Of a DNA stretch of 37,369 nt, positions 1 to 15,257 are shown one piece after another (within the stretch, counting starts at the first letter, position 1; each line of letters starts with the position of its first letter). A program made the translations under genes and the position numbers. Origin of the DNA: Candidatus Heimdallarchaeota archaeon (lineage in GTDB: Archaea > Asgardarchaeota > Heimdallarchaeia > Heimdallarchaeales > Heimdallarchaeaceae); NCBI GenBank assembly GCA_021399395.1, contig JAAFKJ010000163.1, forward strand, positions 1-37,369, in the 5' to 3' direction. The notes under the pieces were generated by a model that made no database searches, had not been told where the DNA came from, and was given only the letters and a program-made list of their open reading frames with translations.

Positions 1-474
1 AGTTATTCTGTTAGAAGTGAATCTCGAAATCAAGATTCTAGAGTGATAAGAGCTGTTTTGGAACCTATTTTAATAGACTATGGAGTGGATCTAGTTTTTT
101 CAGGACATGATCATTACTATTATAGAACCACAAGAAACGGCATTGTTCATATTACCACCGGTGGAGCAGGTGCACCTCTTTATACTCCTATTGCAACTGA
201 ATATGCTATTGCAGGAGATAAGTACTTCGCAGAACATCACTATTGTAATGTGTCGGTTACAGACGATAAACTTACAATTACAGTTTTGATGTATGATGAA
301 AATCTAGAATATACTACAGTTGAAGATACAATAGAATTCAATTTAAACGGTATAATAACTACAACTCCTACTCTAACAGAAGTTTCATACCTTTCAGGAT
401 TTCTAATCTTCTTGTTTATCATAACAATCTCTATTCAAAGAAAGAGAAAGGATAAAAAATTGTTTAAAATGTGA
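1..474 (+). CDS. Calcineurin-like metallophosphoesterase (purple acid phosphatase type), 3' part only, with C-terminal membrane anchor
   Basis: Frame is open from base 1 (SYSVRSESRNQDSRVIRAV...), so the gene starts left of the window. Motifs VDLVFSGHDHYY and ITTGGAGAPLY; ends in a hydrophobic helix plus RKRK. Confidence 0.85.
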   Translation, partial: SYSVRSESRNQDSRVIRAVLEPILIDYGVDLVFSGHDHYYYRTTRNGIVHITTGGAGAPLYTPIATEYAIAGDKYFAEHHYCNVSVTDDKLTITVLMYDENLEYTTVEDTIEFNLNGIITTTPTLTEVSYLSGFLIFLFIITISIQRKRKDKKLFKM

Positions 475-503
475 CAACACTCTAAACAATTTCTCTAATT
501 TTT

Positions 504-618
504 TTAAATGTTATCTTGGATGAATTGAGTTAACTTTGTGAAATAGTCTAATTCCAAATAAGCTTCTACATGTCCTCTTCCATCCACTCTCCAGAGTAAT
601 TTTGTGGTACCTGGTATT
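504..618 (-). pseudogene. 3' remnant of an alpha/beta hydrolase gene
   Basis: Minus frame reads IPGTTKLLWRVDGRGHVEAYLELDYFTKLTQFIQDNI*, matching the catalytic-His end of alpha/beta hydrolases (LWxVxGxGH...Y...F). No ATG before an upstream in-frame TGA. Confidence 0.6.
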
Positions 619-621
619 TTT

Positions 622-654
622 GATCCATTTCCGCTTAGTAGCAGTCCGATTTGA
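622..654 (+). pseudogene. Extreme 3' remnant of a beta-helix (NosD-like) gene
   Basis: Reads DPFPLSSSPI*, matching the ends of the three intact paralogues (DPYPLVSNPLS*, DPYPLVTNPLE*, DPYPLITNPL*). Confidence 0.5.
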
Positions 655-674
655 ATGGTGTTAGAGCTATCTCA

Positions 675-720
675 TTGTCTCAGAAATGTCACAAAAACTT
701 ATCAAATGAATATTAATAAG
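675..720 (+). promoter_or_regulatory. Promoter of regulator 1: 11-bp phased direct repeats plus weak TATA box
   Basis: TTGTCTCAGAA (675), ATGTCACAAAA (686), weak ACTTATCAAAT (697), then TTAATAAG at 713. Confidence 0.6.
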
Positions 721-748
721 TAACTCAAATATAATTCAAATGAGTAGA

Positions 749-772
749 ATTTCAAGGGAAATTCTTTTGAAC
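749..772 (+). promoter_or_regulatory. Conserved palindrome or leader hairpin upstream of regulator 1
   Basis: ATTTCAAGGGAAATTCTTTTGAAC; 20/24 identical to 11123-11146; TTCAA...TTGAA arms. Confidence 0.55.
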
Positions 773-791
773 GTTTGTGAGATTCATAGAG

Positions 792-1820
792 ATGGTGCAG
801 AGAAGAAACATTACTTTAATTGGTTTGTTGATTTTTACTACTTTCCTATTGCAGAATCCAAATGATCAACTTAGACTCTACGGCCTGAATGATCCAGTAG
901 ATTCTTCCGATAATCTTCTCTCTGACTCAATTATAATGAAATCTCACATAATTCAAATAGATATTCAATCATCTGACAAAGTATTTGTAACTGAAGTCTG
1001 TAATGTTGAGAATCAACTCAATTTCTCCATTTCAACAATGAATCTTTGGATGAATCACTCTTGCAGTAATATTACCGTACAAGATGGTTCAGGGGAATTA
1101 GATTATGATGTTCTAATTCAAACAACTTCCTTTTGTCAATTGACATTCGATTTCAATCAAGCACTAAACACAAATGAGTCAACAGTTTTCTATATCTCCT
1201 ATAATTTGGATTTGATGCCTCTTTACGAAGATGTATCAGAATATTATTATTTTGAGTATTCCTCCACTATAAATTTCTACACTCTCAAGCATTACCTATC
1301 AATTAAACTGCCTGAGAATAGCTATATCCATGAGGAAGCTGGGTTGACATCTGTATATCCTACTAACTATACACAGAGTGTTGCAGGTAAAAGTCTGATA
1401 TTATCATGGACTTTGAATGATCTTATACCTTCCATAAATCCAATCTACATTGTAAGATTTGACCCTCCTTCGCTTGAACAATCTAATCTTCCTGTATGGG
1501 CTTTTATTGTGGGACCAATTGTTGGAATATCCATAGGTGTTGTAAGTACATATTTCCTCATGAGACGTAAAGAAGGAAAATCAATCAAAGATATGGGGGT
1601 ATTATTTTTGAATGAATCTCAAAAAATTCTTCTTGGGATAATAAACGATGTAGGTGGTAAAATTGCTCAAAGTGATTTAGGTAGAAAAGCTGATTTCACA
1701 AGAGCTAAGACATCAAGGAATCTCTTACTTCTTGAAGAACAAGGATTAGTGAGAAAGGAAAAATGGGGGAGAAATGCAATAGTCTATCTCACAAAAGCAG
1801 GGGAGAAAGTGATTGAATGA
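792..1820 (+). CDS. Membrane-anchored winged-HTH transcriptional regulator (signal/TM, beta-rich ectodomain, TM, C-terminal MarR-like wHTH; COG2512-like)
   Basis: N-terminal hydrophobic segment, TM helix VWAFIVGPIVGISIGVVSTYFLM followed by RRK, then IAQSDLGRKADFTRAKTSRNLLLLEEQGLVRKEKWGRNAIVYLT. Start is ATG 792 or GTG 777. Confidence 0.85.
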   Translation: MVQRRNITLIGLLIFTTFLLQNPNDQLRLYGLNDPVDSSDNLLSDSIIMKSHIIQIDIQSSDKVFVTEVCNVENQLNFSISTMNLWMNHSCSNITVQDGSGELDYDVLIQTTSFCQLTFDFNQALNTNESTVFYISYNLDLMPLYEDVSEYYYFEYSSTINFYTLKHYLSIKLPENSYIHEEAGLTSVYPTNYTQSVAGKSLILSWTLNDLIPSINPIYIVRFDPPSLEQSNLPVWAFIVGPIVGISIGVVSTYFLMRRKEGKSIKDMGVLFLNESQKILLGIINDVGGKIAQSDLGRKADFTRAKTSRNLLLLEEQGLVRKEKWGRNAIVYLTKAGEKVIE

Positions 1821-1821
1821 T

Positions 1822-1878
1822 ATGTACTATAATTGTCAAAAAATTATCTCGAAATTCGCAAAAGAAACATCTCATAAA
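1822..1878 (+). promoter_or_regulatory. Promoter of beta-helix genes 1-2: four 11-bp phased repeats plus weak TATA box
   Basis: ATGTACTATAA (1822), TTGTCAAAAAA (1833), TTATCTCGAAA (1844), TTCGCAAAAGA (1855), then CTCATAAA at 1871. An AGGTGA RBS precedes ATG 1911. Confidence 0.6.
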
Positions 1879-1910
1879 CGAGAAGAACAAATGTAATAAT
1901 AGGTGAAAGT

Positions 1911-4289
1911 ATGAAAACTATCTGGAAATATTTAATTGGCGTTTTTGCAGGGTTGCTAGTTACTACAGCAATAATTGTACCTGTTTTGCTCTTAGAATTT
2001 GGTGAAGTCAATCCACCTTCTCATGATAACCTAGTAGAACACGACCCTATCACTATCTGGGGAAATGATGATTTTCTAGATTACGATTTTGCAGGAACCG
2101 GAACACAAAATGATCCCTATATAATCGAGTTTCTAAACATCACTTCTATCACTTCATATGCAATTTACATCTTTGGAACTAACGCTCATTTTGTAATTCT
2201 AAATTGCTTACTTAGTTCTTCACATTCCGAAGGAACTTCTATTCATCTAGAGAATGTTTTCAAAGGAACTTCAACAGTTTTCAATAACACCATCATCAAT
2301 ACCTTCAGAGGAGTGGTGCTATCTAATACTGATTCTTGTGATGTTAATCAAAATTCATTCGAATTTTGTCGATTTGCTATATCTCTATCTTCATCTGATG
2401 ATTCAGGTATTTTCAATAATACTTTTTACAATAGTAATACCAATTTCCTCTATCATATTGTCAGTTCTAGTTCAATAAGAATGAATCTCACATCAAATAC
2501 TTTTGATGGAGAAACAGGCCTAATCCAATTAGATTATTCTACAGATGCATATTTGATAAGAAACCAAATGAATAATGCTTCATTTTACCTAACATATTGT
2601 CAAAGAAGTTTAATCTCAAACAATACTGGAATCGATTTCAATATCCTTCTGTTATATTCTAGAGATACGAATATTACATTTAACGAAGGGGCGTATTTCT
2701 CCTCATTTCAATCACCATCCTCTAGATTAGAATACAACCAATTTGATGATTATTCCATTAGAGATACAAGTATTTCAGCTTATGATAGTTATATAGTTAA
2801 TTCAAATTTAGCGGGAGATGGGTACTTTGATATGATTGTGAGTGCTAATGCTTTAAATCTCACTGATTCTCTATTAACTGTTGCACAAATTTTACTCATA
2901 AATTGTACAGATATCTGGATATATGATGTTGATTCTTCATTTCAATATATCCAAATAGATCTTATCTATTGTTATAATATAGAGGTTGTAAATGTCAGTA
3001 CTGAGATTTATCTTTATGCTCAAGAATGTAATAATATTTCTGCACGCAATAATGGATTAATGCATATTTACTTCACATTATCTCAAAATCTTTCCATAAT
3101 AAATAATTCTTTTTCTGATACAGATATATATTGCTCACAATCAGATAATTTGGAAGTAACAGGTAATGATTTCATAAATAGTGAAATTTCTTTTATTGAA
3201 ACTGAGAACTCGTATGTTGCAAATAATTACTTCTTCGATGGTCATATTGATTCATTCTTAAACCTGAATATTTCTATTCTCTCAAATCTGTTTGAAGTTT
3301 GTGAATATGGACTTACAGATAGCCATTCAACTGAAATATATATAGAAAATAATATTTTCACTGAAGTTTATGATGTTGGCCCTCGCATATTTTCATCAGA
3401 GAGTTTTTCTTTCAAAAACAATTCAATTTCTGGGGAAAATTGTGGTCTAAACTTCTATGGTGGTGTAGGTTCATATGGGGCTTTAGCTTTATCTAATAAT
3501 ACAGTAAACTCCAAGCCATTGGGTTTTATTGTTGATCAAAATAATCTGACACTAACTAACATGACGTACGGACAATTAATCATATTGAACTGTAACAATA
3601 TTGCGATAGAAGATATAACTATTACAAATACAAGTGTAGGAATTTTCATCTATAAATCAAATTATGTAAATGTAACAAATACTATAGTTGATAATTGTTA
3701 TAATGGCTTTGTCTTAACTCAATCTGAATATTGTATCATATCTGAAATATCCATTTCTGATTGTTCTAACATAGGATTGTATGTTCTTGGAGATTCAACT
3801 CAAGCTCATCTCTCTGGTTCTACATACACCAGAAATGTCGTAGGGGTTTACATCTCTTCCTCAGATTTATGTGTTATCGAAAATAATACTCTCTATAATA
3901 ATGGTGATGGCTTAAGAATTTATTATTCTGATTACGTTATAACCCATAATAATACCTTCATAGGAAATACTAATAGAGGATTGCAGCTTTCAGGAATGAA
4001 TCAAGGATGTAATGTTACTTACAATCTATTTCAAGATAATATTGGATATGCTATTGAAATCTCTACAACTTCAACATCTCATTTCATACATCATAATGCA
4101 TTCATAGGTAATAATCTTGAAGGAACATCTCAAGCTCTAGATCGAGCAGGAGAGAGTATCTGGTACGATGATTTATCCTCTGAGGGGAATTTTTGGGATG
4201 ACTGGTCAGGTAGTGGAAGTTATCAGATAGATTGGCAGACAGTTAGTGTTGTTGATCCTTATCCTCTAGTAAGCAATCCTCTAAGTTAA
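1911..4289 (+). CDS. Membrane-anchored right-handed parallel beta-helix (NosD/CASH-type) surface protein
   Basis: Single N-terminal TM helix, GTGTQNDPYII motif, many Asn-rich PbH1-type repeats, C-terminal GNFWDDW...DPYPL, many N-x-S/T sequons. Confidence 0.9.
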   Translation: MKTIWKYLIGVFAGLLVTTAIIVPVLLLEFGEVNPPSHDNLVEHDPITIWGNDDFLDYDFAGTGTQNDPYIIEFLNITSITSYAIYIFGTNAHFVILNCLLSSSHSEGTSIHLENVFKGTSTVFNNTIINTFRGVVLSNTDSCDVNQNSFEFCRFAISLSSSDDSGIFNNTFYNSNTNFLYHIVSSSSIRMNLTSNTFDGETGLIQLDYSTDAYLIRNQMNNASFYLTYCQRSLISNNTGIDFNILLLYSRDTNITFNEGAYFSSFQSPSSRLEYNQFDDYSIRDTSISAYDSYIVNSNLAGDGYFDMIVSANALNLTDSLLTVAQILLINCTDIWIYDVDSSFQYIQIDLIYCYNIEVVNVSTEIYLYAQECNNISARNNGLMHIYFTLSQNLSIINNSFSDTDIYCSQSDNLEVTGNDFINSEISFIETENSYVANNYFFDGHIDSFLNLNISILSNLFEVCEYGLTDSHSTEIYIENNIFTEVYDVGPRIFSSESFSFKNNSISGENCGLNFYGGVGSYGALALSNNTVNSKPLGFIVDQNNLTLTNMTYGQLIILNCNNIAIEDITITNTSVGIFIYKSNYVNVTNTIVDNCYNGFVLTQSEYCIISEISISDCSNIGLYVLGDSTQAHLSGSTYTRNVVGVYISSSDLCVIENNTLYNNGDGLRIYYSDYVITHNNTFIGNTNRGLQLSGMNQGCNVTYNLFQDNIGYAIEISTTSTSHFIHHNAFIGNNLEGTSQALDRAGESIWYDDLSSEGNFWDDWSGSGSYQIDWQTVSVVDPYPLVSNPLS

Positions 4290-4304
4290 AAAAAGTGGAA
4301 AAAC

Positions 4305-6683
4305 ATGAAAATCAACTGGAAGTATCTCATCAGTTTCTTCGTTGGATTAGTGATAATTTCAGCAGTTTTGATACCTGTTTTGTTGTATCAATTTGTGTAT
4401 TTTCAAGGAGATTATACAGGACATGATCCAATTGTAATCGAATGCGATGAAGATTTCCTCAAATATAAATTCAAAGGTACTGGAAGTATAGAAAATCCCT
4501 TTGTAATTGAAGAACTAAACATTACAACAGTAGATAATTATGCGATTCTCATAACCCATACAACACTTCATTTCATAATTCAAAATTGCTTTTTGAAAAC
4601 TATGATTGAAACTTGGCATGCCTACTGCTATCCAGTTGGTTTTTCTATTTCTTTGTCTGAGATAGAAGATTCTACAGTTACAATACGCAATAACACTTTA
4701 TCTGGATATCACTCGGGACTCTCTGTAGAGTATGTGAATGGTTGTAAGATTCTTAACAACAGATTTGAAGAGTGCGATATTTCTGTGAGTTTGGCTCATG
4801 CTGATAACACTCTGATAACTGGAAATACTTTTCAAGATGTTCATAAGTATTATCGAACCTATGTAGATGCTAAAGATGCTAACAATTTAACATTGACACA
4901 AAATCATTTTAGTGGCTCTCGAGGAAACATCGTTTTAAGCGGAAGTAGCGAATCGTTTGTTGGAAGAAATATTATGAACAATGTTTCTTTTTCAGCTTAC
5001 TCTTCTAAATTAACCCTTACAAATAATACAGGGCAAAGTCTTACTGTTGCAATCGTAGGTTCAAATGAATCTATCATAGTTTTCAATGAGGGATCTAATT
5101 TCAGAATTATTGGTTCCCCTCACTCTCGAATCGAATACAACCATTTTGATGATTATTCTATTGAAGATCAGTCTGTAGAGAATTACTTGACTTATATTGT
5201 TAATTCTAATACCTGCTCAGACGGTTTATTTGATTTAATCATAAATAATAATTCAATTGATCTCAGCACGATTCTACCGCTATATTCTCAAGTTATTTAT
5301 GTCAATTGTTCAAATATCTGGCTAAATAATTACTCGGATTCATCAAAGATTGCTAAATTCGATTTCATTTATTGCCTTGATATTGGTATCTTAAACAATG
5401 ATGTTTTGCTTGAACTTGATTTTCAAGAAAGCGAGAACATAACTGCATCTCAGAATTCTATTTCACAACTAAAAATACAGTATTCAGGTGATATGACATT
5501 CTTCAGCAATACATTCTCAGAAACAGAAATTACTTGCGAATATACATATGATCTGGAATTTCTGGAAAATTATTTCTATCAAAATTCATTGTATTTAGAT
5601 GATTGTGTAAATGTTTCAATAACTGAGAACTTAGTATTTAATGGGCTGATTAAAGGGCATGGAAACTCGAATTACTCTGTTCTTTCGAATGATTTTGTTA
5701 TGTGTGAAAAAGGTCTATTTCTGTCAGACTCACTTGATGTTATATTCTCTGATAACAAATTTGATGATATTTATGGTTCAGGTCCTACAATGTTTGAAAA
5801 TGAAAATTTCATCTTTAATAATAATTCAATTAATGGTGTTCAATGTGGTTTCTATTTCGGTGTAAGACCCCATGAGTATTTACCCCAAGTAACTAATAAT
5901 TTCGTAAATTCAAAACCTCTAGGATATTATGTAAATCAAAATAATTTAACAGTGGAGGGACTATCTTTTGGACAATTAATAATAAGCAACTGCAGTTCGA
6001 TTATAGTAAAAGACATCACGATTTCTAATACAAGATCTGGTTTATCTGTTTTCTATTCAGAAAATATATCTATTGAGAACTTATCCGTAAGTTCCTGTGA
6101 TGATGGAATTTGGGTAAGAAGCTCTGAGAATCTTAGAATTTCAGATTCTCAACTATCTAGTTGTTCATCTAGTGGGATCACCATTGGAAGCGTTGATAAT
6201 GTCTCAGTATCTAATAATACTTGTGATCAAAATTGGGTTGGTATGTCACTCTCTTCTGCCGATTTCGTCCTTATTACCAATAATACCTTCATGAGAAATT
6301 ATTACGGACTGAGTATTCACTATAATGATTACGTTCTAGTCCAAAATAATTCCTTTATAGAAAATTCTAACATAGGAATATATCTTGATGGGACTGATGA
6401 CTGCAGTTTTGTTTTTAATTTATTCCTCAACAACACTGGATATGCAATGTATGCTAATCGTTTTTCAGAAGGAAATTCAATTCACCATAATGCGTTTATA
6501 GATAACAATCTAGAAGGTTCTTCCCAAGCTTTCGATTGGGAAGGGTTAAACAACTGGGCTGATTATGGAACTCTGGAAGGTAATTTTTGGAATACGTGGT
6601 CAGGCACAGGAAGTTATCAAATAGATTGGATCACCGAGAACGTGGAAGACCCTTATCCTCTTGTTACAAACCCTCTAGAGTGA
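4305..6683 (+). CDS. Membrane-anchored right-handed parallel beta-helix (NosD/CASH-type) surface protein, tandem paralogue
   Basis: Same architecture and same length (792 aa) as 1911..4289; starts 15 nt after it. Confidence 0.9.
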   Translation: MKINWKYLISFFVGLVIISAVLIPVLLYQFVYFQGDYTGHDPIVIECDEDFLKYKFKGTGSIENPFVIEELNITTVDNYAILITHTTLHFIIQNCFLKTMIETWHAYCYPVGFSISLSEIEDSTVTIRNNTLSGYHSGLSVEYVNGCKILNNRFEECDISVSLAHADNTLITGNTFQDVHKYYRTYVDAKDANNLTLTQNHFSGSRGNIVLSGSSESFVGRNIMNNVSFSAYSSKLTLTNNTGQSLTVAIVGSNESIIVFNEGSNFRIIGSPHSRIEYNHFDDYSIEDQSVENYLTYIVNSNTCSDGLFDLIINNNSIDLSTILPLYSQVIYVNCSNIWLNNYSDSSKIAKFDFIYCLDIGILNNDVLLELDFQESENITASQNSISQLKIQYSGDMTFFSNTFSETEITCEYTYDLEFLENYFYQNSLYLDDCVNVSITENLVFNGLIKGHGNSNYSVLSNDFVMCEKGLFLSDSLDVIFSDNKFDDIYGSGPTMFENENFIFNNNSINGVQCGFYFGVRPHEYLPQVTNNFVNSKPLGYYVNQNNLTVEGLSFGQLIISNCSSIIVKDITISNTRSGLSVFYSENISIENLSVSSCDDGIWVRSSENLRISDSQLSSCSSSGITIGSVDNVSVSNNTCDQNWVGMSLSSADFVLITNNTFMRNYYGLSIHYNDYVLVQNNSFIENSNIGIYLDGTDDCSFVFNLFLNNTGYAMYANRFSEGNSIHHNAFIDNNLEGSSQAFDWEGLNNWADYGTLEGNFWNTWSGTGSYQIDWITENVEDPYPLVTNPLE

Positions 6684-6786
6684 TTTTTAAAGACTTTTTC
6701 CATTTTTTCATAATTGTTAATGAGGAAGTTTTTTAAATAATTGTTTATTTCTTCAAACACTACATTGTATCTATCAAATCTATAAG

Positions 6787-9700
6787 GTGTTCAATATAAC
6801 TACAGAGTACATAGGGGTAAACATCGGTTCTGTATCCGTTAACTTAGTTTCTCTTGATGAAAAGGGTAAGGCTTCCATCGCCAAACATCCTCATTTAGGG
6901 AAACCTGAAGAAGTTCTAGAAAAAATGATTAAAGAACAAGTTAGTTCAGAAAAGAGATTCTTTGATGTAAGCGGGTCTTTTGGTGAAATTTCAGAAATTG
7001 TTGCAATAGAGAAAGGTATCAGTTCTTATGATGAGAAATTTGATATTGTGGTTTCACTTGGTGGTGAATCCTTTGTATTATATGTTCTTGATGAAAAAGG
7101 ATACATAGTAAACGTTCTTTCACATGATAAGTGTGCAGCTGGAAGTGGAGAATTCTTCATTCAACAGATTGATAGATTGGACGTAACTTTATCTGAAGCA
7201 ATAGATTTAGCTAAAAAAGGGAAGAAAATCGAGCTTGCTTCTCGTTGCTCTGTTCATTGTAAATCTGATGTTACACATAAACTAAATCGTGGTGAAGCAT
7301 CCATTGAGGATATTCTAACATCAGTTCTCGCAAGTATGGTTAGTAAGGTCATGGGGTTAATTACTCAATCTCGAGTTGAACTGAAGAGACTACTACTGAT
7401 AGGTGGGATCTCTCTTAACGATGCATTTGTGAAATTGCTTCGAGAAGAATTAGATGGTGTAGAAGTTGTTATTAAAGACGTTAGTTCTGTTTTCGAAGCT
7501 TATGGTACTGCTTTGATAGTCCAAGAATCACCACTACATGACAATTACAAGTTAATTACAACTAAAACTTTTACACAACTACCTTCTCTAGAACAATTTA
7601 GTGACCAAGTAACAATTATTGAAGCTAAAGAAAACAAAAAGGATTTTGATAAAAACTTATCTCTAATATTAGGAGTAGATGTAGGATCTACAACTACCAA
7701 AGCAATATTACTCGATCCTGTAGATAATGCAGTTGTTGCATCCTATTATGGCCGAACTAGTGGAAATCCTGTCGAAGCAACTAAAAAATGTATTCAAGAA
7801 TTAATTGATCAAGCAGGAAATTGCAAAGTAAATTTAGTAGGTGTTACAGGTTCAGGGAGACAAATAGTTGGTGCTTATCTTGGTACATCAGCTGTTTATA
7901 ATGAAATTTCTGCTCACTCTAAAGGAGCAGTATATTATGATGAAGAAGTCGATACTATTTTCGAAATAGGTGGGCAAGATTCTAAGTACATGTTTCTACA
8001 AAATGGTGTTCCAGTAGACTATGCAATGAATGCTAGCTGTTCAGCTGGAACAGGATCTTTCTTGGAAGAAAGTTCGAAAGGAGATCTTGGAATACATGTT
8101 TTTGATATTTCAGATGTAGCTATGAAAGCAGATAGTCCAGTAAGATTCAAAGCAGATTGTGCTGCATTTATCAACACTGATATTCGTACAGCAGCTCAAG
8201 AAGGATATGAACCCGATAATATAGTAGGCGGGTTAGTTTATTCCATTGCCGATAATTATCTGAATAAAGTTAAAGGACTAAGACCTGTTGGACAAAAAAT
8301 CTTTTTCCAAGGGGGAGTTGCAAAAAACAATGCTGTTGGATATGCCTTCGCTCAGGCAACTGGAAAGAAAATTATTATCCCTCCAAATCCAGAGTTAATT
8401 GGAGCTTTTGGTATCTCGTTGATTGCTAAATCTAAATACGAACAACACGAAATCATAGGCATGTCTGAGCATACCTCTCTTGAATCACTCATCAAAGAAA
8501 AAATGAAACATTCAGGAAGTTTTACTTGCAAAGCATGTAAAAATTATTGTCAAATTGAAAGATATGAAGTGGGTGGTAGAAAATTCCCATTTGGAGGAAG
8601 ATGTTCTAGATATGAACATCAGTGGAGAGGTTCGGATAAAACAGAAGAAAAAGAGGATTTGGTTCTTATCCGAAATGATCTTTTATTCGGTATCAATTCT
8701 GGAACTGAAAAGAAGAAACCTACTCATAATGAAAGAATAGGAATTCCACGAGCACTACTTACTCATTCTCTTTATCCTTTATATTCAACATTTTTTGAAG
8801 AACTAGGCTATGAAATCATCCTTTCAGGGATCGATGATGATAAAGAATTGATGACAAATGCTTCATTTTGTTATCCAGTACAAATTTTACATGGAGCAGT
8901 TTTAGATTTGGTTAAGAACAAAGTAACTACTGTGTTTTTACCTCATGTTCATTCCGGGACAACAGGAAAAGATTGGAGAGATTCAACTTTTTGTCCTCTA
9001 ACTCAAGCTAGTCCTTATTTCATATCACAAGCTTTCAAAGAACTAGAATTTTTGAGTCCTGTTTTAGATTTTAGACAAGGTTACGAAAACAATAATGCTC
9101 TTGTAAAAATGGCTGTAGAAAAGCTTGATATTCCCAAGAATATTGCTAACAAAGCATATCATAAAGCAATAACTGCTCAAAAACAGATCGAAGATAAATT
9201 TTTGGAGAAGGGGAAGGAAACTTTGGACAAACTCAGAGATTCTGGTGAGATAGGGATTTTATTAGTGGGAAGAAGTTACAACGCTTTTCCACCAGAGACG
9301 TCCCAATTAATACCTAAGAAACTAGCTAGTATGGGAGTCACTGTTATTCCTTTTGATTTCCTGGGTAAAGATTCTGCCGAAGACTTTCCTTGGTTCTTTG
9401 CTAACTACGCACAAAAAGCTCTAGAACTAGCTCAGGAATATGATAATCTGTTCATACTTTATATTAACAGTTTTAGCTGTACAATCGATGCTTTTGTTCA
9501 AAATCATATGAGAAATGAGATGAAATCTAAACCTTATCTGATCTTAGAACTAGATGCACATTCAGCTGATGCTGGAATACAAACCAGACTAGAAGCTTTT
9601 CTTGAAATAATCAAGAATTTCCAAGTAACCAAGAAGAAAACAGAAGTTAAACCATTCCAAATAACTAAAGTGAAAAAGAGGAGTGGAAAAATCGTTGTGA

Positions 9701-10971
9701 TAACTTCTGATAATAAGAAACTGGATATTAGAGACCCGAGAGTAAAACTCCACTTTTTCCCATTCTCTCAATATCATACTGATACAATGTCGAAAATATT
9801 CGATCTTTTTGGTTTCCACTCGGGAGAAACAACTGAGATGAAGATTGAATATCCTGTAGAAGGTTTGAGATACACTTCAGGAAAAGAGTGTATACCTTTA
9901 CCTATAATCATAGGACATATGCTATCAATAATAGAAAATAGAAAACCTGGGGAAGCAGTTGGATTTTTCATGATCAGAGGGGGATCGCCTTGCGCTGTAT
10001 ATAGTTACTTTAACTATCTATTACATTTCATTGAAAAGAATGAATTCAAGGATGTGTTCCTTTTTAGGTTTGATCAACTCACTGATTTCTTAGGAATTGA
10101 TCGAATAACTATTGCCAAATATGTACCTGCAACAGCACTAGTTGGAGATCTTATGGTTGAGATAGATAGTGCTTTACAAGTAGTGGGGCATAACGGCAGT
10201 AGGCAACTTCTCCAAGATTATTGGTCAGAGTTCTTATCATGCACAACTGAGTTGAAGCAATTTCATAAGAATGTTGAGAAATTAATAGATAAAATCTCTA
10301 CAATTCCAAGAAAGGAATCTCCCAAAAATTTACCCAAAGTGCTAATCACTGGTGATTTCTTCGTTAGATATAGTCCATTCTTTCTAAATGAACTAAAAGA
10401 GCTTTATGCTAAACACAACATTCTAGTTAAATCTTCAGATCTATATGAAGTTTCTTTGTATAGTAATATCAATTTAAGACTAATAGTCGCCCAAGATTGG
10501 AGAAAAGAACCGAATAAAGTTTCAACAGCTCTCAGAGCCTTTGCTACTTTCTGGACTAGATCCTCACAACTTTATATTATTAGTTTACTCGCTCCTCCTC
10601 TTATGCATGCAATTGAAAAGAGATATAGAAGGAAGTTTAAGAAAACAGGTCTGTTGTTTGCTGGAAGAAATAATCTTAGGGAAATAAACAAACAATCCAA
10701 ACCACTAATTAGTCCTCTGATTTTTGGAGAAGCAATTCCAACAATTGGAAAAGGTATGGAAACACTAGAAAACAGTGATTATGACTCACTTATACTAACA
10801 GGACCAATAAACTGTTTACCATATAAAATAGCACAAGCTATTCTGAAACCAATATATCTAGAACATGGAGTGCCTTTCCTAGTATTTGATGTAGATACCT
10901 CGGCGATAACTCCTAATATGAAACGTTTAATCAATGCTAATATTGAACAGATAAAAAGAAGGCAAAACTAA
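6787..10971 (+). CDS. Fused acyl-CoA dehydratase activase (two BadF/BadG/BcrA/BcrD ASKHA ATPase domains, DUF2229-like region, dehydratase-component-like C terminus)
   Basis: GVDVGSTTTK, GVTGSGR, EISAH, FEIGGQDSK, MNASCSAGTGSFLEE, CAAF, CKACKNYC, GGRC, IGIPRAL, CYP, LELDAHSADAGIQTRLEAF and GKECIP motifs. Confidence 0.9.
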   Translation: MFNITTEYIGVNIGSVSVNLVSLDEKGKASIAKHPHLGKPEEVLEKMIKEQVSSEKRFFDVSGSFGEISEIVAIEKGISSYDEKFDIVVSLGGESFVLYVLDEKGYIVNVLSHDKCAAGSGEFFIQQIDRLDVTLSEAIDLAKKGKKIELASRCSVHCKSDVTHKLNRGEASIEDILTSVLASMVSKVMGLITQSRVELKRLLLIGGISLNDAFVKLLREELDGVEVVIKDVSSVFEAYGTALIVQESPLHDNYKLITTKTFTQLPSLEQFSDQVTIIEAKENKKDFDKNLSLILGVDVGSTTTKAILLDPVDNAVVASYYGRTSGNPVEATKKCIQELIDQAGNCKVNLVGVTGSGRQIVGAYLGTSAVYNEISAHSKGAVYYDEEVDTIFEIGGQDSKYMFLQNGVPVDYAMNASCSAGTGSFLEESSKGDLGIHVFDISDVAMKADSPVRFKADCAAFINTDIRTAAQEGYEPDNIVGGLVYSIADNYLNKVKGLRPVGQKIFFQGGVAKNNAVGYAFAQATGKKIIIPPNPELIGAFGISLIAKSKYEQHEIIGMSEHTSLESLIKEKMKHSGSFTCKACKNYCQIERYEVGGRKFPFGGRCSRYEHQWRGSDKTEEKEDLVLIRNDLLFGINSGTEKKKPTHNERIGIPRALLTHSLYPLYSTFFEELGYEIILSGIDDDKELMTNASFCYPVQILHGAVLDLVKNKVTTVFLPHVHSGTTGKDWRDSTFCPLTQASPYFISQAFKELEFLSPVLDFRQGYENNNALVKMAVEKLDIPKNIANKAYHKAITAQKQIEDKFLEKGKETLDKLRDSGEIGILLVGRSYNAFPPETSQLIPKKLASMGVTVIPFDFLGKDSAEDFPWFFANYAQKALELAQEYDNLFILYINSFSCTIDAFVQNHMRNEMKSKPYLILELDAHSADAGIQTRLEAFLEIIKNFQVTKKKTEVKPFQITKVKKRSGKIVVITSDNKKLDIRDPRVKLHFFPFSQYHTDTMSKIFDLFGFHSGETTEMKIEYPVEGLRYTSGKECIPLPIIIGHMLSIIENRKPGEAVGFFMIRGGSPCAVYSYFNYLLHFIEKNEFKDVFLFRFDQLTDFLGIDRITIAKYVPATALVGDLMVEIDSALQVVGHNGSRQLLQDYWSEFLSCTTELKQFHKNVEKLIDKISTIPRKESPKNLPKVLITGDFFVRYSPFFLNELKELYAKHNILVKSSDLYEVSLYSNINLRLIVAQDWRKEPNKVSTALRAFATFWTRSSQLYIISLLAPPLMHAIEKRYRRKFKKTGLLFAGRNNLREINKQSKPLISPLIFGEAIPTIGKGMETLENSDYDSLILTGPINCLPYKIAQAILKPIYLEHGVPFLVFDVDTSAITPNMKRLINANIEQIKRRQN

Positions 10972-11047
10972 ACATTTCGTCTTTCGATTTCATCACTTTC
11001 TATCCAGTTTATTTGCAACTATATGATCGATAATTATCCTCCTCCTC

Positions 11048-11096
11048 TTGTTTCATTCGTGTCTTGAAATAGTCCCGACTGACTTTTCTTATATTG
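11048..11096 (+). promoter_or_regulatory. Promoter of regulator 2: three 11-bp phased repeats plus TATA-like box
   Basis: TTGTTTCATTC (11048), GTGTCTTGAAA (11059), TAGTCCCGACT (11070), then TTCTTATATTG at 11086. Confidence 0.6.
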
Positions 11097-11122
11097 AGGA
11101 CTACATTTATTCTCAATGACGA

Positions 11123-11146
11123 GTTCGAAGGGAAACTCTTTTGAAC
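11123..11146 (+). promoter_or_regulatory. Conserved palindrome or leader hairpin upstream of regulator 2
   Basis: GTTCGAAGGGAAACTCTTTTGAAC folds into a 10-bp stem using G-U pairs; followed by an AGGTGA RBS and TTG start. Confidence 0.55.
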
Positions 11147-11162
11147 AAAAAGGTGAAATATA

Positions 11163-12185
11163 TTGGCATTGAGAAATAGAAATTGTTTAACTCAGACAAC
11201 TTTGATTATACTTTCTTTAATACTAATACTTAATGTGTCCAATCAAACTTATCAAACTAAAGGGTGTGTTGAACACACTCAGAATAAAGATCAATATAAC
11301 AGTAATGGAGATTTTACAGTCATTTCTCATAATACTCAAATTGATGTTGTAAGTGTTGATACTATAGAAGTAAGAGAGATATTCAAAATTGAAAATAAAA
11401 ATCCTCTTTCTGCTGATTTTATTAGTCTCTGGTTAAACCATTCTTGTAAGAATATCATTGTAGAAGATCCTATTGGAACTTTGGAATATGAGAAAATTGT
11501 AGATTCATTATCATATAGTTACTTGAAAATAAACTTCAGATCGGAGCTTAATTACAAAGAACAAATGGTTTTTTACATCACTTATTCTCTCAACGATCTT
11601 CCGTTAGCAGAGAGTATAAATCATTACTATTTCGAATTTTACTCAACTATAACTTTCACTACTAAACTACATCACTTATCAGTAAAGTTACCTGAGAGAT
11701 GCTATGTAAGTGATAATACAGATGTTACGTCTATTTACCCAGCTAATCAATCACAAAGCTTCATGGGTCGAAGATTAATACTGTCATGGACTCAAAGCAA
11801 TTTAACCTCTTCAATGAATCCATTTTATTTAGTAAGATTTGATGTCCCAAAAAATCTAACTTGGGTATATGTTCTGAGTCCAATTCTAGGTGTTATGATA
11901 GGTGTAACTTCTACTATATGGTTTATGAGAAGGAGAGAAAGAAGTGCAATACAAAGTATGGGTACAGTCTTTCTAAATGAATCTCAAAGAGTCTTACTAA
12001 AAACAATACTTGAAAATGATGGCAAAATTGCTCAAAAAGATCTATGTAGAAAAACAGGTTTTACTAGGTCAAAAACATCAAGAAATCTGATCTCTTTAGA
12101 AGAACAAGGTTTTATTGTTAAAGAAAAATGGGGTCGAAATTCGCTCATAAAGTTGACTAAATCGGGAGAGATGGTGATAGAATGA
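11163..12185 (+). CDS. Membrane-anchored winged-HTH transcriptional regulator, paralogue of 792..1820
   Basis: Same layout; wHTH IAQKDLCRKTGFTRSKTSRNLISLEEQGFIVKEKWGRNSLIKLT; RBS AGGTGA 6 nt before TTG. Confidence 0.85.
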   Translation: MALRNRNCLTQTTLIILSLILILNVSNQTYQTKGCVEHTQNKDQYNSNGDFTVISHNTQIDVVSVDTIEVREIFKIENKNPLSADFISLWLNHSCKNIIVEDPIGTLEYEKIVDSLSYSYLKINFRSELNYKEQMVFYITYSLNDLPLAESINHYYFEFYSTITFTTKLHHLSVKLPERCYVSDNTDVTSIYPANQSQSFMGRRLILSWTQSNLTSSMNPFYLVRFDVPKNLTWVYVLSPILGVMIGVTSTIWFMRRRERSAIQSMGTVFLNESQRVLLKTILENDGKIAQKDLCRKTGFTRSKTSRNLISLEEQGFIVKEKWGRNSLIKLTKSGEMVIE

Positions 12186-12186
12186 T

Positions 12187-12243
12187 TGCTCCCGAAAATG
12201 TTTCAAATTACTCCCGAAATGAACCCGTCCAATATCTCATTAG
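12187..12243 (+). promoter_or_regulatory. Promoter of beta-helix gene 3: four 11-bp phased repeats plus weak TATA box
   Basis: TGCTCCCGAAA (12187), ATGTTTCAAAT (12198), TACTCCCGAAA (12209), TGAACCCGTCC (12220), then CTCATTAG at 12236. Confidence 0.6.
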
Positions 12244-12274
12244 AATAGAACAAATAATATAACATGGTGAAAAA

Positions 12275-14644
12275 ATGAAACCCGCATTGAAATATCTAAC
12301 CGGCATTGCTGTCGGAATAATTGTTTTAGCATCAGTTTTTGTACCACTCTCACTTTTAGTGTGGAACAATAGACTTGTACAGCACGATCCTATTCTAATC
12401 TGGAAAGACGAGGATTTTACTGGGTATAATTTACCTGGAAAGGGAACTCTGGAAAACCCATATAGAATAGAGAATTATAATATTACAACAGATGATTTGT
12501 ATTGTATATATATCATCAATACCACCAAGTACTTCCTAATAGAAAATTGTTATTTACAGACTACACATGAAGAAGGATATGGGATATATCTAAGTGATAC
12601 AACAAGTGGAACAGGAAAAATAACCAAGACAACTATAGACAAATGTGATACAGCATTGGGTTTATTTGAATCTAGTGGAAATGATGTAATTGACAACTCG
12701 ATATCACTTTGTAAAACACCTTTCGATATCTACAAGAGCAACTCAACAGACTTGATTAACAATTCACTGAGTAATTATGAAGAAGCTTCTAATTGGAATT
12801 CTTATATCTACTCAAGTTATGATACTAATTTCATTGGTAATGTTGTTCTCAAGTACGATTATGGTTTGTTTTTTGCAATTGAAGATTCAGATGATATATC
12901 TTTTGCACAGAATGATCTACAAGATGTAACTCTATACATTCAATTTTGTTCAAATATAACAATCATGAAAAATCAAGGTTCCGAATGTCATATCAATCTT
13001 GGAAATAGCCAAAATAATACTATAAATGATAATCAAATACACTCTCTAGATATCTATAATAGCTTTTATACTGAAGTTAGAAATAACTACTTGATTCGCT
13101 TTGACATCTATCTTGAATCATCATCTGATATCTACTTCTATACATTTGAAGATAATTATGTAAATGATAAGAAGCTGGAGTTTTTTATAGGAATAAGTAG
13201 TTTGAGCATTACAACATCTTTAAGTGAATATGGGAGAATATACTTCTTAGGATGTACAGATATTACTATAAGTGACCCTACTCCAATGGGAGGATATTTA
13301 CCAATTGATTTTGTAGATTGCATGAATATATTCATCTCCAATGTTAACCAGGATCTTGATTTATCTTTTCAGAATTCAGATAATTGTATGTTGACAGAAA
13401 CTAATATCCTAGACTTGGAATTATTCAACTCTGAAGACATCACAGTATCAGATTGTAACGTAAATGGTTATGAAATTGACGTTCTATATTCAAATAACAT
13501 AGCAATAACTGATAACCAAATATCAATTTCCTATCTAAGAATCGATCATGATAATGGTGTAAACCTAATTAATAATGAGATTTCAGTTGAAGAGATTGAC
13601 ATAAGTTATGTTCAGAACTTGATAATGCAAGACAATAACATTTCTGACTGTTTGGATGGTTTGAGATTTTACATGATCTCAGATTCAATGATAATGGGTA
13701 ATCTCATTAAAGACATGACTGAATATGGAATCGCATTCAGTGATTTCCACAACATAAGTTTTGAGAACAACTTAATTACAGATTGTTTAAAAGGATTGAA
13801 TTTATTTGCTAAGAATTTGGATCAATATCTGTTATCATCGTTTTCAGACAATTATTTTGACGGAAAGATTATTGGTTATTACGCTAGTGTTGAGAACCTT
13901 ATAATAGATACAGGAGATTTTGCTCAAATGATCTTTGTCAATTGTACCAATCTCTTAATTAAAGACATTATTGTGACTAATTCACCTGATTATATCAGAA
14001 TTGTATATAGTGATAAAGTAATTGTTTCTAATGTAACTTGTGAAGATTCATTTGGAGGTATCTCCGTTCATTATACAGAAAATCTTGAAATTAGCATTTG
14101 CTCATTCAACTCTATTACATATACTAGCATAGACTTTGGAGATTGTCCTTCAGCTTCTATCGTGAATAATACTATTAATTCAAGTGGTGTTGCAGTCAAT
14201 ATGTATCTCTCTGATTATACTCAAATTCTGAACAACTCCATAGAAAATACCCAAAATGGCGTTATAGTATTTAAGTCATTAAACTGCTCAATAAATTGGA
14301 ATTCTATGATTAACTGCAGTGAGGTTGGAATTGAACTTTATCGAAGCGATTATTGTAATATTACATATAATCTACTGAAAGATTGTTATTACTGGGGTGT
14401 TAAATTGCAAGAAGAATCAACCTATAACCAAATTCATCACAACGCTTTCATAAACAATAACTGGCAAACTATCAATCCTGAGTATACTTCTCAAGCAATT
14501 GATGATGGACAAAACAACATATGGTTTTACCCTATATTGTTGGAAGGTAATTACTTCGATGATTGGAGTGGTTCTGGGGAGTATGTGATTTATGGTGAGG
14601 CTCTTAATACTGATCCTTATCCTTTAATCACAAATCCTCTTTAA
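12275..14644 (+). CDS. Membrane-anchored right-handed parallel beta-helix (NosD/CASH-type) surface protein
   Basis: N-terminal TM, GKGTLENPYRI, PbH1-type repeats, GNYFDDWSG...DPYPLITNPL; GGTGA RBS. Confidence 0.9.
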   Translation: MKPALKYLTGIAVGIIVLASVFVPLSLLVWNNRLVQHDPILIWKDEDFTGYNLPGKGTLENPYRIENYNITTDDLYCIYIINTTKYFLIENCYLQTTHEEGYGIYLSDTTSGTGKITKTTIDKCDTALGLFESSGNDVIDNSISLCKTPFDIYKSNSTDLINNSLSNYEEASNWNSYIYSSYDTNFIGNVVLKYDYGLFFAIEDSDDISFAQNDLQDVTLYIQFCSNITIMKNQGSECHINLGNSQNNTINDNQIHSLDIYNSFYTEVRNNYLIRFDIYLESSSDIYFYTFEDNYVNDKKLEFFIGISSLSITTSLSEYGRIYFLGCTDITISDPTPMGGYLPIDFVDCMNIFISNVNQDLDLSFQNSDNCMLTETNILDLELFNSEDITVSDCNVNGYEIDVLYSNNIAITDNQISISYLRIDHDNGVNLINNEISVEEIDISYVQNLIMQDNNISDCLDGLRFYMISDSMIMGNLIKDMTEYGIAFSDFHNISFENNLITDCLKGLNLFAKNLDQYLLSSFSDNYFDGKIIGYYASVENLIIDTGDFAQMIFVNCTNLLIKDIIVTNSPDYIRIVYSDKVIVSNVTCEDSFGGISVHYTENLEISICSFNSITYTSIDFGDCPSASIVNNTINSSGVAVNMYLSDYTQILNNSIENTQNGVIVFKSLNCSINWNSMINCSEVGIELYRSDYCNITYNLLKDCYYWGVKLQEESTYNQIHHNAFINNNWQTINPEYTSQAIDDGQNNIWFYPILLEGNYFDDWSGSGEYVIYGEALNTDPYPLITNPL

Positions 14645-14646
14645 CC

Positions 14647-14654
14647 TTTTTTTT
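14647..14654 (+). terminator. Archaeal oligo-T terminator
   Basis: T8 run 2 nt after the stop codon at 14644. Confidence 0.5.
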
Positions 14655-14858
14655 ATATCAAGTTGTCTGATTTTGCAGATTCCTGAGAATATGTTTTTCA
14701 TCTTCCTTTTTCTTCCTTTTTCTCTTCATTTTTGAGTTAGATTTATAAGTGTCTGAAAATCGCAAAAACGCATTTTCACGCCCTTAAATATTCAAATCTT
14801 GAAATTTTGCTAGTGTATCTAAATTGATATAACTGTTCAAACAAGGGATAAGATTAAC

Positions 14859-15257
14859 ATGCATCAAATAGAATCAAAAGGAACCTATTATGAGATAGGT
14901 AGACAGATAGGGAAGAAGCTCTCAAAAGTGAAGAGTTATCCTCCAAAATTTACGAAAGAAGTACTGGAAAAGACTCTTCCATATGAAGAGGTTGCAAAGA
15001 AGTATACTCCAGATTTACTAGAAGAATTCAGAGGATTATCAGATGAATTAGATATAGATTATTATGTTCCTCTCACACTTGAATTGACTCCTTATAGATT
15101 TCAAGCACAATGCTTAGTCTTTGCAGTTTCAGGAGAACATACTCGATCAGGACATCCTGTGTTAGCTAGAAGCCATGAATGGAAAGAAGAAGAGAGTGTA
15201 AACTTGGCAGTCTGTCATACAGCTCCTGAAGGAAAACTGAAGAGTGTAGGCTATTGA
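14859..15257 (+). pseudogene. C-terminally truncated peptidase C45 / acyl-CoA:6-APA acyltransferase-like Ntn hydrolase
   Basis: GTYYEIGRQIG, PDLLEEFRGLS, nucleophile Cys in AQCLVFAV and VLARSHEW are present, but the frame stops about 47 residues after the Cys. No continuation is seen in other frames. Confidence 0.75.

Follow-up and report, generated by a model that had tools for sequence, protein, structure and literature searches.

Phased 11-bp direct repeats as candidate operators of membrane-bound winged-helix regulators in a Heimdallarchaeaceae genome

The stretch of DNA studied here, called the window, is contig C76 (JAAFKJ010000163.1, 37,369 nucleotides (nt)) of a metagenome-assembled genome of 2.8 Mb and 34% G+C from the Heimdallarchaeaceae. 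It contains two paralogous modules, both on the + strand, each of which consists of a membrane regulator, R, and a beta-helix surface protein, B. In module 1 the regulator gene R1 (792..1820; the open reading frame list starts this frame at GTG 777) is followed by B1 (1911..4289) and B1b (4305..6683), the presumed targets, which code for membrane-anchored NosD-like right-handed beta-helix proteins (Pfam Beta_helix, NosD). Module 2 contains R2 (11163..12185), a paralog of R1 with about 46-50% identity, and B2 (12275..14644), the gene for the beta-helix surface protein of this module. An unrelated BadF/BcrA-type activase gene of 1394 residues lies between the two modules. The B proteins have 16-23 N-x-S/T sequons each (B1 23, B1b 22), a density of 2.0-2.9 per 100 residues versus 0.69 in the long open reading frames of the genome, which is three to four times the genome average. 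It was found by Pfam search that R is the only DNA-binding protein encoded in each module. Other R genes of the genome are located on C120 (full module), C167 and C122 (partial).

All four promoters of these modules are preceded by arrays of direct repeats with a period of 11 bp and a consensus of about WTGTCYCRAAA, as was claimed in an original prediction made before the present analysis. All 14 units were recovered where it had placed them, in exact 11-bp register and with the letters as given. Array P_R1 (P1; 675..707, + strand), upstream of R1, consists of TTGTCTCAGAA, ATGTCACAAAA and ACTTATCAAAT at 675, 686 and 697. Array P_B1 (P2; 1822..1865, +) begins 2 nt past the R1 stop codon and consists of ATGTACTATAA, TTGTCAAAAAA, TTATCTCGAAA and TTCGCAAAAGA at 1822, 1833, 1844 and 1855, its conserved core being the units at 1833-1854. 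Upstream of R2 is P_R2 (P3; 11048..11080, +), the weakest array, with TTGTTTCATTC, GTGTCTTGAAA and TAGTCCCGACT at 11048, 11059 and 11070. P_B2 (P4; 12187..12230, +) begins 2 nt past the R2 stop codon and is made up of TGCTCCCGAAA, ATGTTTCAAAT, TACTCCCGAAA and TGAACCCGTCC at 12187, 12198, 12209 and 12220. In four of four promoters the last unit is separated by exactly 5 nt from an AT-rich octamer. It had also been stated that several units are degenerate, and a repeat search with exact 6-nt seeds misses most of them, finding only 12185/12207 (spacing 22; a 13-nt repeat with 92% identity) and 721/732 (spacing 11). The latter pair, TAACTCAAAT and TAATTCAAAT at 721-741, lies 11 bp apart downstream of the TTAATAAG octamer, roughly in register with the array at 675, and may represent extra weak units, or chance.

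Periodicity was scored without a consensus, by matching letters among three consecutive units, and among the periods 8-14 compared, period 11 alone was extreme. As a chance control, the share of equal-length random genome regions reaching the observed period-11 score was determined; it was 0.0018 for P1 (score 0.64), 0.0009 for P2 (score 0.67), 0.021 for P4 and 0.106 for P3. P1, P2 and P4 each stand alone statistically, P1 and P2 strongly and P4 moderately. Dinucleotide shuffles of the two R-B spacers reached the observed score in a share of 0.001 (P_B1) and 0.015 (P_B2). The original prediction had named an equal frequency of such arrays in shuffled or unrelated DNA as the finding that would speak against it; in the window, period 11 is beyond chance.

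R was found in 23 of the 24 other genomes sampled from this genus, and in none of 16 from other genera of the order (E 1e-10 or better), and 61 R loci from relatives were compared. Up to five or six modules can occur in one genome, and these differ in box class. R1 and R2 belong to a clade with the recognition-helix motif FTR[AS]KTSRN, and the strings TRAKTSRNL and TRSKTSRNL had been read correctly in the original prediction. Ten R-B spacers of this clade align almost gap-free (one single-base gap in each of two rows, internal in one of them), with R only 45-55% identical. Conserved blocks in the ten spacers are unit 2 (TGTCnnAAAA), unit 3 (TCYCGAAA), AATATCTCATtA and the Shine-Dalgarno (SD) sequence GGTGA, and as judged from this alignment the R-B spacers appear to be under purifying selection. 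The P_R1 array is conserved in L004 and L026 and the P_R2 array in G000:C120 and L003.

It could be argued that the arrays have no function, being chance periodicity combined with the shared ancestry of duplicated promoters, or that they act at the RNA level, as an element of a transcript shared by R and B. The paralogy of modules 1 and 2 means that their promoters do not count as independent cases, P3 does not reach significance by itself, and there are loci in which a B-like gene abuts R with no spacer. However, the spacers retain conserved boxes in an almost gap-free alignment in spite of the divergence of R, the R promoters match a matrix trained on B promoters only, with which they share no homology, and repeats one DNA turn apart are seen again, in other letters, across many clades. 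For the RNA-level version, Rfam gave no match at gathering thresholds in window positions 1-15000. Taken together, absence of function and the RNA-level version are considered extremely improbable. The loci without a spacer are L047, L050 and L052; their R variants carry a C-terminal extension of about 40-50 residues past the DNA-binding domain, and here R and the B-like gene are probably co-transcribed, with the internal operator lacking.

In most clades the R stop codon is followed, after no more than a few bases, by phased repeats of 10-11 bp, and the core letters are specific for the clade. The spacer core is GGTTGC or AGTTGC in the F[TI]KSRISRN clades and AGTCT in the YTKAKVSRN clade. In the [YF]SKSKISRN clades it is CGTTGCA, CGTTTCA or GGTTGGCAACC, and L032, L034 and L039 have as many as five or six units of 10 bp in tandem. 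A shuffle test was carried out for each of 32 loci with 1000 dinucleotide shuffles, counting loci with a share of 0.032 or less. Period 11 beat the shuffles in 18 of 32 loci (by group 8/9, 6/7, 4/5, 0/6 and 0/5), as compared to 0 of 32 at period 9, 6 of 32 at 10, 1 of 32 at 12 and 0 of 32 at 13. Repeated 4-mers were counted in the first 60 nt past the R stop codon, for those loci (47 of 63) whose downstream gene is 70-160 nt away. A GC-containing 4-mer was repeated at 11 bp in 32 of these 47 loci and at 10 bp in 17, with 3-12 loci at each of the distances 7-9 and 12-15; in 289 control same-strand spacers of the genome the values were flat at 11-22% across distances. The relatives are not independent, and therefore the locus counts overstate the number of events. 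In the clade of L006-L008, L011, L013, L015 and L061, two direct CGTTGC copies 10 bp apart form the palindrome GTTGCGCAAC, and two inverted TGCAAC copies occur about 25 nt downstream of it. Such a layout would fit a dimer of dimers or looped DNA better than a simple tandem array.

The repeats recur at one helical turn and most units finish with a run of three or four A residues, so they might be phased A-tracts, that is, intrinsically bent DNA upstream of promoters with a structural role and no sequence-specific protein. Against this, the letters that are most conserved and specific to each clade are the GC-containing cores (TC-C, GTTGC, AGTCT) and not the A runs, and the control spacers of the same AT-rich genome display no excess at 10-11 bp. 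Bent DNA alone is very improbable as the explanation.

The boxes were found to change with the recognition helix. Helices of the type FTR[AS]KTSRN occur with GTCYC/CTCCC, both [YF]SKSKISRN and F[TI]KSRISRN with GTTGC/GTTTC, and YTKAKVSRN with AGTCT. When box class was mapped on a maximum-likelihood tree of 48 R proteins (16 of 64 rows had been dropped as too short or with boxes not assignable), 3 changes were counted, at least 2 of them on well-supported branches, and none of 500 label shuffles gave so low a number. The most informative result of the comparison is that the R promoter of a module, which is not homologous to its B promoter, carries the same core in two clades. GTCYC is found in the R promoters of 6 of 8 loci of the KTSRN clade and in none of 7 of the KSRISRN clade; GTTGC is found in 7 of 7 of the KSRISRN clade and in none of 8 of the KTSRN clade, and the chance expectation for either 5-mer is about 0.15 occurrences per 220 nt. 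Sharing of 6-mers between the two promoters of a module (mean 3.8 within the own module, 3.2 within the group, 2.8 across groups) was dropped as a measure in favour of these core 5-mer counts, being too noisy in AT-rich DNA. In the two SKSKISRN clades no such boxes were found in the R promoters (0 of 12 loci), and autoregulation would be a feature of some clades only, because these 12 promoters have no boxes. A code in which T versus I in the helix sets GTC versus GTTGC was also considered and rejected, since L024 has a KISRN helix with GTC-type boxes.

The boxes could be functional but bound by a different factor encoded elsewhere and not by the adjacent R, and both L024 and the R promoters without boxes in two clades would fit such a factor. 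With up to five or six modules of differing box class in one genome, however, each class would need its own unlinked factor, and R is the sole DNA-binding protein of the module, with a recognition helix that varies in step with the boxes. We regard a separate factor as distinctly improbable.

Both strands of the genome were scanned with a matrix built from the 14 units of the window, overlapping matches being merged. The ranking was P4, the C120 P_B array, P2, a match in a coding region, P1, P3, a further coding match and the C120 P_R array; thus the two promoters of the third module, which is outside the training set, rank 2nd and 8th. A second, out-of-sample matrix was made from 24 units of B promoters only, taken from six loci in other genomes, and 5,619,464 positions were scored. 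With this matrix P4, P2 and the C120 P_B array take ranks 1-3. P1, which belongs to an R promoter not homologous to the training set, ranks 9th, with 10 positions scoring as high, and the score of P3 is reached by 50 positions. Other high-scoring arrays (C131:16313, C4:389, C174:60559 and others) are inside coding regions and were set aside as chance.

The R protein consists of an N-terminal signal/anchor helix, a ribophorin-I-like beta ectodomain, one transmembrane (TM) helix and a C-terminal DUF7343/MarR-like winged helix-turn-helix (wHTH) domain. DUF7343 (PF24034; cut-off 27.6 bits) matches R1 with 36.2 bits and R2 with 46.3 bits, and 28 of 28 family members match it. Weaker Pfam matches are MarR_2, HTH_24 and IclR-HTH, all of them in the last 70 residues; MarR_2 scored 27.1 (R2) and 25.6 (R1) against a cut-off of 27, and MarR (PF01047) 18.5 bits against 24.6. 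An AlphaFold model of R2 was made from 28 family sequences, with a mean predicted local distance difference test (pLDDT) score of 83, and the fold of R1 was taken from it. The model has a hydrophobic helix at 7-24, an all-beta domain at 51-227, a long TM helix at 233-267 and a winged helix at 270-340, with the recognition helix at residues 302-314. In structure the wHTH is closest to the MarR-family proteins BpsR and HpaR, with a root-mean-square deviation (rmsd) of about 1 A over 70 residues and Z about 14. With a DNA-binding domain (DUF7343 match) and a TM segment (model) in one polypeptide, R is a transmembrane transcription regulator by definition. We propose that R is a type-I membrane protein, in which the ectodomain would face outward and the wHTH of about 70 residues would be cytoplasmic.

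Phased direct-repeat operators are known for OmpR/PhoB-type domains, the pho-box having a period of 11 bp, and the original prediction had drawn on proteins of the OmpR/ToxR type. The wHTH of R is not of this type, since the Pfam matches are DUF7343, MarR_2 and HTH_24, the best structural matches are to the MarR family and the topology is reversed. Trans_reg_C (PF00486) was not among the Pfam matches of R1 and R2 at E up to 0.01, nor among the listed R2 matches or the 25 families matched most often, out of 44 found with the 28 members (E up to 1). Membership in the MarR family proper was rejected as well. The MarR profile stays below its cut-off, and there is no room for the MarR dimerisation helices because the model has only about 70 wHTH residues after the TM helix.

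The best structural match of the ectodomain (49-231) is to the membrane-proximal luminal domain of yeast Ost1/human ribophorin I, a subunit of the eukaryotic oligosaccharyltransferase, where 172 residues superpose at an rmsd of 2.1 A (Z 18-19). M1 aminopeptidases, through their N-terminal domain, form the next fold group at Z 14.7. Pfam Ribophorin_I (PF04597) gave no match to R, and in the whole-genome search it found only a different gene, on C136. When the R family profile was aligned with this C136 protein by hhalign, the match had a probability of 80% (E 1.4e-5) and covered 159 columns, the TM helix included. Residues of about 49-267 of R1 and R2 would be related to this part of Ost1/ribophorin I on the evidence of the model and, weakly, also in sequence. 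R and ribophorin I each have one TM helix after the matching domain; unlike ribophorin I, R is predicted to be without the first luminal domain and to have a DNA-binding domain in place of the cytosolic tail.

The octamers that follow the arrays are TTAATAAG before R1 (713..720, +), a distal TATA-like sequence with presumed promoter function, CTCATAAA in the B1 promoter (1871..1878, +; 39 nt before the ATG), the distal TATA-like TTCTTATA before R2 (11086..11093, +; its position is held in aligned R promoters) and CTCATTAG in the B2 promoter (12236..12243, +; 39 nt before the ATG). At the TATA-like box of the B promoters the block AATATCTCATtA is conserved across the 10 aligned loci, and other clades show CTCATATA. 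The 195 SD-led genes of the genome showed no positional peak for a TATA box, and the upstream regions of its tRNA genes were used as reference in their place. These have a purine-rich, GAAA-type transcription factor B recognition element (BRE) followed by TTTAAAAA or TTTTTTAT. By this standard the B-promoter boxes ATCTCATAAA and ATCTCATTAG, sited just upstream of the SD, are weak, which agrees with the description of the octamers as poor in the original prediction. An AT-rich octamer is also kept in position across the aligned R promoters of relatives.

For the R genes, TTAATAAG and TTCTTATA are not the sole candidates for promoters, and the original reading of all four octamers as promoters has to be qualified to this extent, a second, better proximal core promoter being probable. 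An element GGAAAyTCTTTTkrA, which matches the BRE/TATA pattern of the genome, sits 35-40 nt downstream of the R-promoter octamers and 32-39 nt ahead of the R start codon in nearly all R clades, including those without boxes. In the window it is represented by GGGAAATTCTTTTGAAC before R1 (756..772, +), which is overlapped by an 8-bp inverted repeat (746-753/758-765), and by its counterpart GGGAAACTCTTTTGAAC before R2 (11130..11146, +). It is probable, from its position and letters, that this element is the BRE/TATA of a leaderless R mRNA starting at about 792 (R1) and 11163-11169 (R2); alternatively it may be a second operator or a hairpin of the 5' untranslated region. The R promoters of this clade could thus consist of a basal proximal promoter and a box-dependent distal promoter or upstream activating site, as we infer from the alignments. 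Among sequencing data that contain positions 500-10400 of the window, six runs were listed, all of them DNA contigs from two studies, and no RNA run. The element was seen at 746-772 and 11125-11146 of the window and in the loci L004, L006-L008, L011-L014, L016-L023 and L025-L027. Short inverted repeats flank it; the 746-753/758-765 pair is perfect, and in R2 there is a compensatory change from A-T to G-C.

Taken together, it is fairly likely that the boxes are cognate operators of R, which would probably activate B and auto-activate R. The original prediction that the membrane wHTH binds them is supported by the comparison between loci, in which the boxes appear as conserved cis-elements upstream of a weak TATA-like box with a core that tracks the wHTH clade. 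We infer R itself to be the binder, which is the most economical choice because it is the sole DNA-binding protein of the module and its helix varies with the boxes. The proposed control of both the target and the regulator itself agrees with the presence of boxes in both promoters of a module, and does not extend to the two large clades in which R promoters have none. Several R molecules, a presumed stoichiometry, would bind head-to-tail on one face of the DNA, on 2-4 units at 11 bp (core TnTCyCrAAA in this clade). Such tandem binding, of the kind known for ToxR on its tox-boxes, is suggested by the direct orientation, the 11-bp spacing and the small size of a wHTH that lacks the dimerisation helices of MarR. 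A weak BRE/TATA, whose position is likewise presumed, follows closely on the last unit, and R would help TFB/TBP onto the weak promoter of the beta-helix gene or genes. In this clade R could act likewise at the distal promoter of its own gene, or through an upstream activating site, and the conserved proximal leaderless promoter would supply basal R from its presumed start. Cross-talk between modules 1 and 2 of the window, also raised in the original prediction, is plausible from sequence because helices and boxes are near-identical in both.

Activation, as originally proposed, is argued from the position of the boxes, with which repression is also compatible. Recruitment of TFB/TBP is suggested by analogy because the boxes adjoin a weak BRE/TATA, as has been proposed for EarA/Ptr2 and seen for ArnR. 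R could instead repress, covering the BRE/TATA of weak promoters until a signal from the ectodomain releases it. MarR-like proteins are commonly repressors, palindromic copies are located near the TATA-like box in two clades, and the last, weak unit ends 5 nt before the octamer and so overlaps the expected position of the BRE. On the other hand, the well-conserved units are 17-38 nt upstream of the octamer and not on it, and the TATA-like boxes are poor compared with the tRNA promoters, as expected of activator-dependent promoters; sites of the activators EarA and ArnR are at comparable upstream positions. Repression by R is judged unlikely.

Several observations weigh against the boxes being operators from which R activates. 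The overlap of the last unit with the BRE position has just been mentioned. P3 at 11048 is not significant by itself, and with the out-of-sample matrix the C120 P_R array is modest, its score being reached by 527 positions. The outer units 1 and 4 of the B arrays are poorly conserved in relatives. MarR-like wHTH proteins are usually dimers on palindromes, and two clades have palindromic or inverted copies (GTTGCGCAAC, GGTTGGCAACC, TGCAAC) and not pure direct arrays. The KISRN helix of L024 with its GTC-type boxes makes a simple residue-to-base code fail. R and its spacer are inherited together, and therefore clade-specific boxes partly reflect shared descent, and box class has switched independently only a few times (3 changes, of which the well-supported branches account for at least 2). 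If the proximal element is the sole promoter of R, the R-promoter boxes are 85-117 nt before the start codon, which is far for an archaeal activator.

The preferred reading, R as an activator on tandem operators, can be compared with known systems. ToxR, TcpP and CadC are, like R, membrane-tethered wHTH proteins, and ahead of their target promoters they bind sets of direct repeats whose spacing is close to one helical turn, an arrangement shared by the R boxes. For ToxR the tox-box reads TNAAA-N5-TNAAA (PMC8517210), and the DNA of a promoter is tethered to the membrane by multiple molecules of ToxR (PMC10629549). These proteins have an N-terminal OmpR/PhoB-type domain and a C-terminal periplasmic sensor and work with bacterial RNA polymerase, whereas R has an N-terminal ribophorin-I-like sensor, a C-terminal MarR/DUF7343-like wHTH and archaeal promoters. 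ArnR and ArnR1 of Sulfolobus acidocaldarius are membrane-bound activators of surface-structure genes and a paralog pair with possible cross-regulation, and ArnR has two boxes at -43 to -84 which are both required for binding (PMC6396743). They resemble R in being archaeal and membrane-bound, occurring as paralog pairs and, as is presumed for R, having surface-structure genes as targets. ArnR has an N-terminal HTH, a HAMP-like cytoplasmic sensor, two C-terminal TM helices and inverted-repeat boxes TCGAC-N5-GTCGA; R differs in its outward-facing ectodomain and in boxes that are direct repeats at 11 bp.

For EarA, up to three adjacent copies of the site occur 9 nt upstream of a weak BRE, and the action proposed for EarA/Ptr2 is TFB/TBP recruitment (PMC10665913). 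In EarA (Methanococcus, Thermococcales) and Ptr2 the motif is repeated up to three or four times at a fixed 9-11 nt upstream of a weak BRE/TATA. In the B promoters the R boxes end, at the 5 nt already given, before a conserved weak TATA-like box that is itself 39 nt from the start codon. EarA and Ptr2 are soluble proteins of other families with different motifs, and have neither a membrane anchor nor an ectodomain. The class of transmembrane transcription regulators, in which a DNA-binding domain is combined with one or more TM regions, is reported to be widespread in archaea with about 4 per genome (Demey et al. 2023; PMC10269533). The accessible text of that survey has no mention of Asgard archaea, the R family or operators, and its supplementary tables may list the R family. 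Literature searches, with subscription journals outside their coverage, found no paper on DUF7343 and, in the sources as far as they were accessible, no Asgard wHTH operator and no ribophorin-wHTH fusion. Membrane-tethered regulation is already known, archaea included; what is new here is the architecture, a ribophorin-I-like ectodomain, one TM helix and a C-terminal MarR-like wHTH.

To our knowledge, next to nothing has been learned of how Asgard archaea control the transcription of particular genes, and we know of no means of genetic manipulation in Heimdall-group organisms yet. The modules give regulator-operator pairs that can be tested wholly in vitro, with sites predicted to the base and a defined phasing. 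They offer at least three natural specificity classes (GTCYC/CTCCC, GTTGC/GTTTC and AGTCT) with matching variation of the recognition helix, and each module has an internal control in the same boxes of two non-homologous promoters. Through them, membrane-tethered one-component regulation is also linked to the beta-helix surface proteins, a group with a large expansion specific to this lineage. It could be imagined that the genus keeps fast-diversifying private modules. In these the ribophorin-I-like ectodomain, as a homologue of the substrate-handling subunit of the eukaryotic oligosaccharyltransferase, would sit on the cell surface and monitor export or N-glycosylation of the sequon-rich beta-helix proteins; its single TM helix would connect it directly to a winged helix acting as a monomer, which would read a clade-specific operator code phased at 11 bp and give feedback on surface-protein genes. 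This is speculative and, as a whole, quite unlikely; if true, the R family would be a natural panel of matched helix and operator specificities.

About 33 beta-helix paralogs are spread over the genome, most of them with ordinary strong TATA boxes and without arrays. A three-unit array, TAGTCTCACAA ATGTCTTAACT TTGTAAAAAAC, is found at G000:C34:6271-6303, where it starts at the stop codon of a 566-residue coiled-coil gene and stops 40 nt short of the ATG of a beta-helix gene of 374 residues, an orphan with no R next to it. It ranks 11th with the window matrix, and its score with the out-of-sample matrix is reached by 186 positions. By its units and position, this array is a candidate for a trans-regulated member of the regulon.

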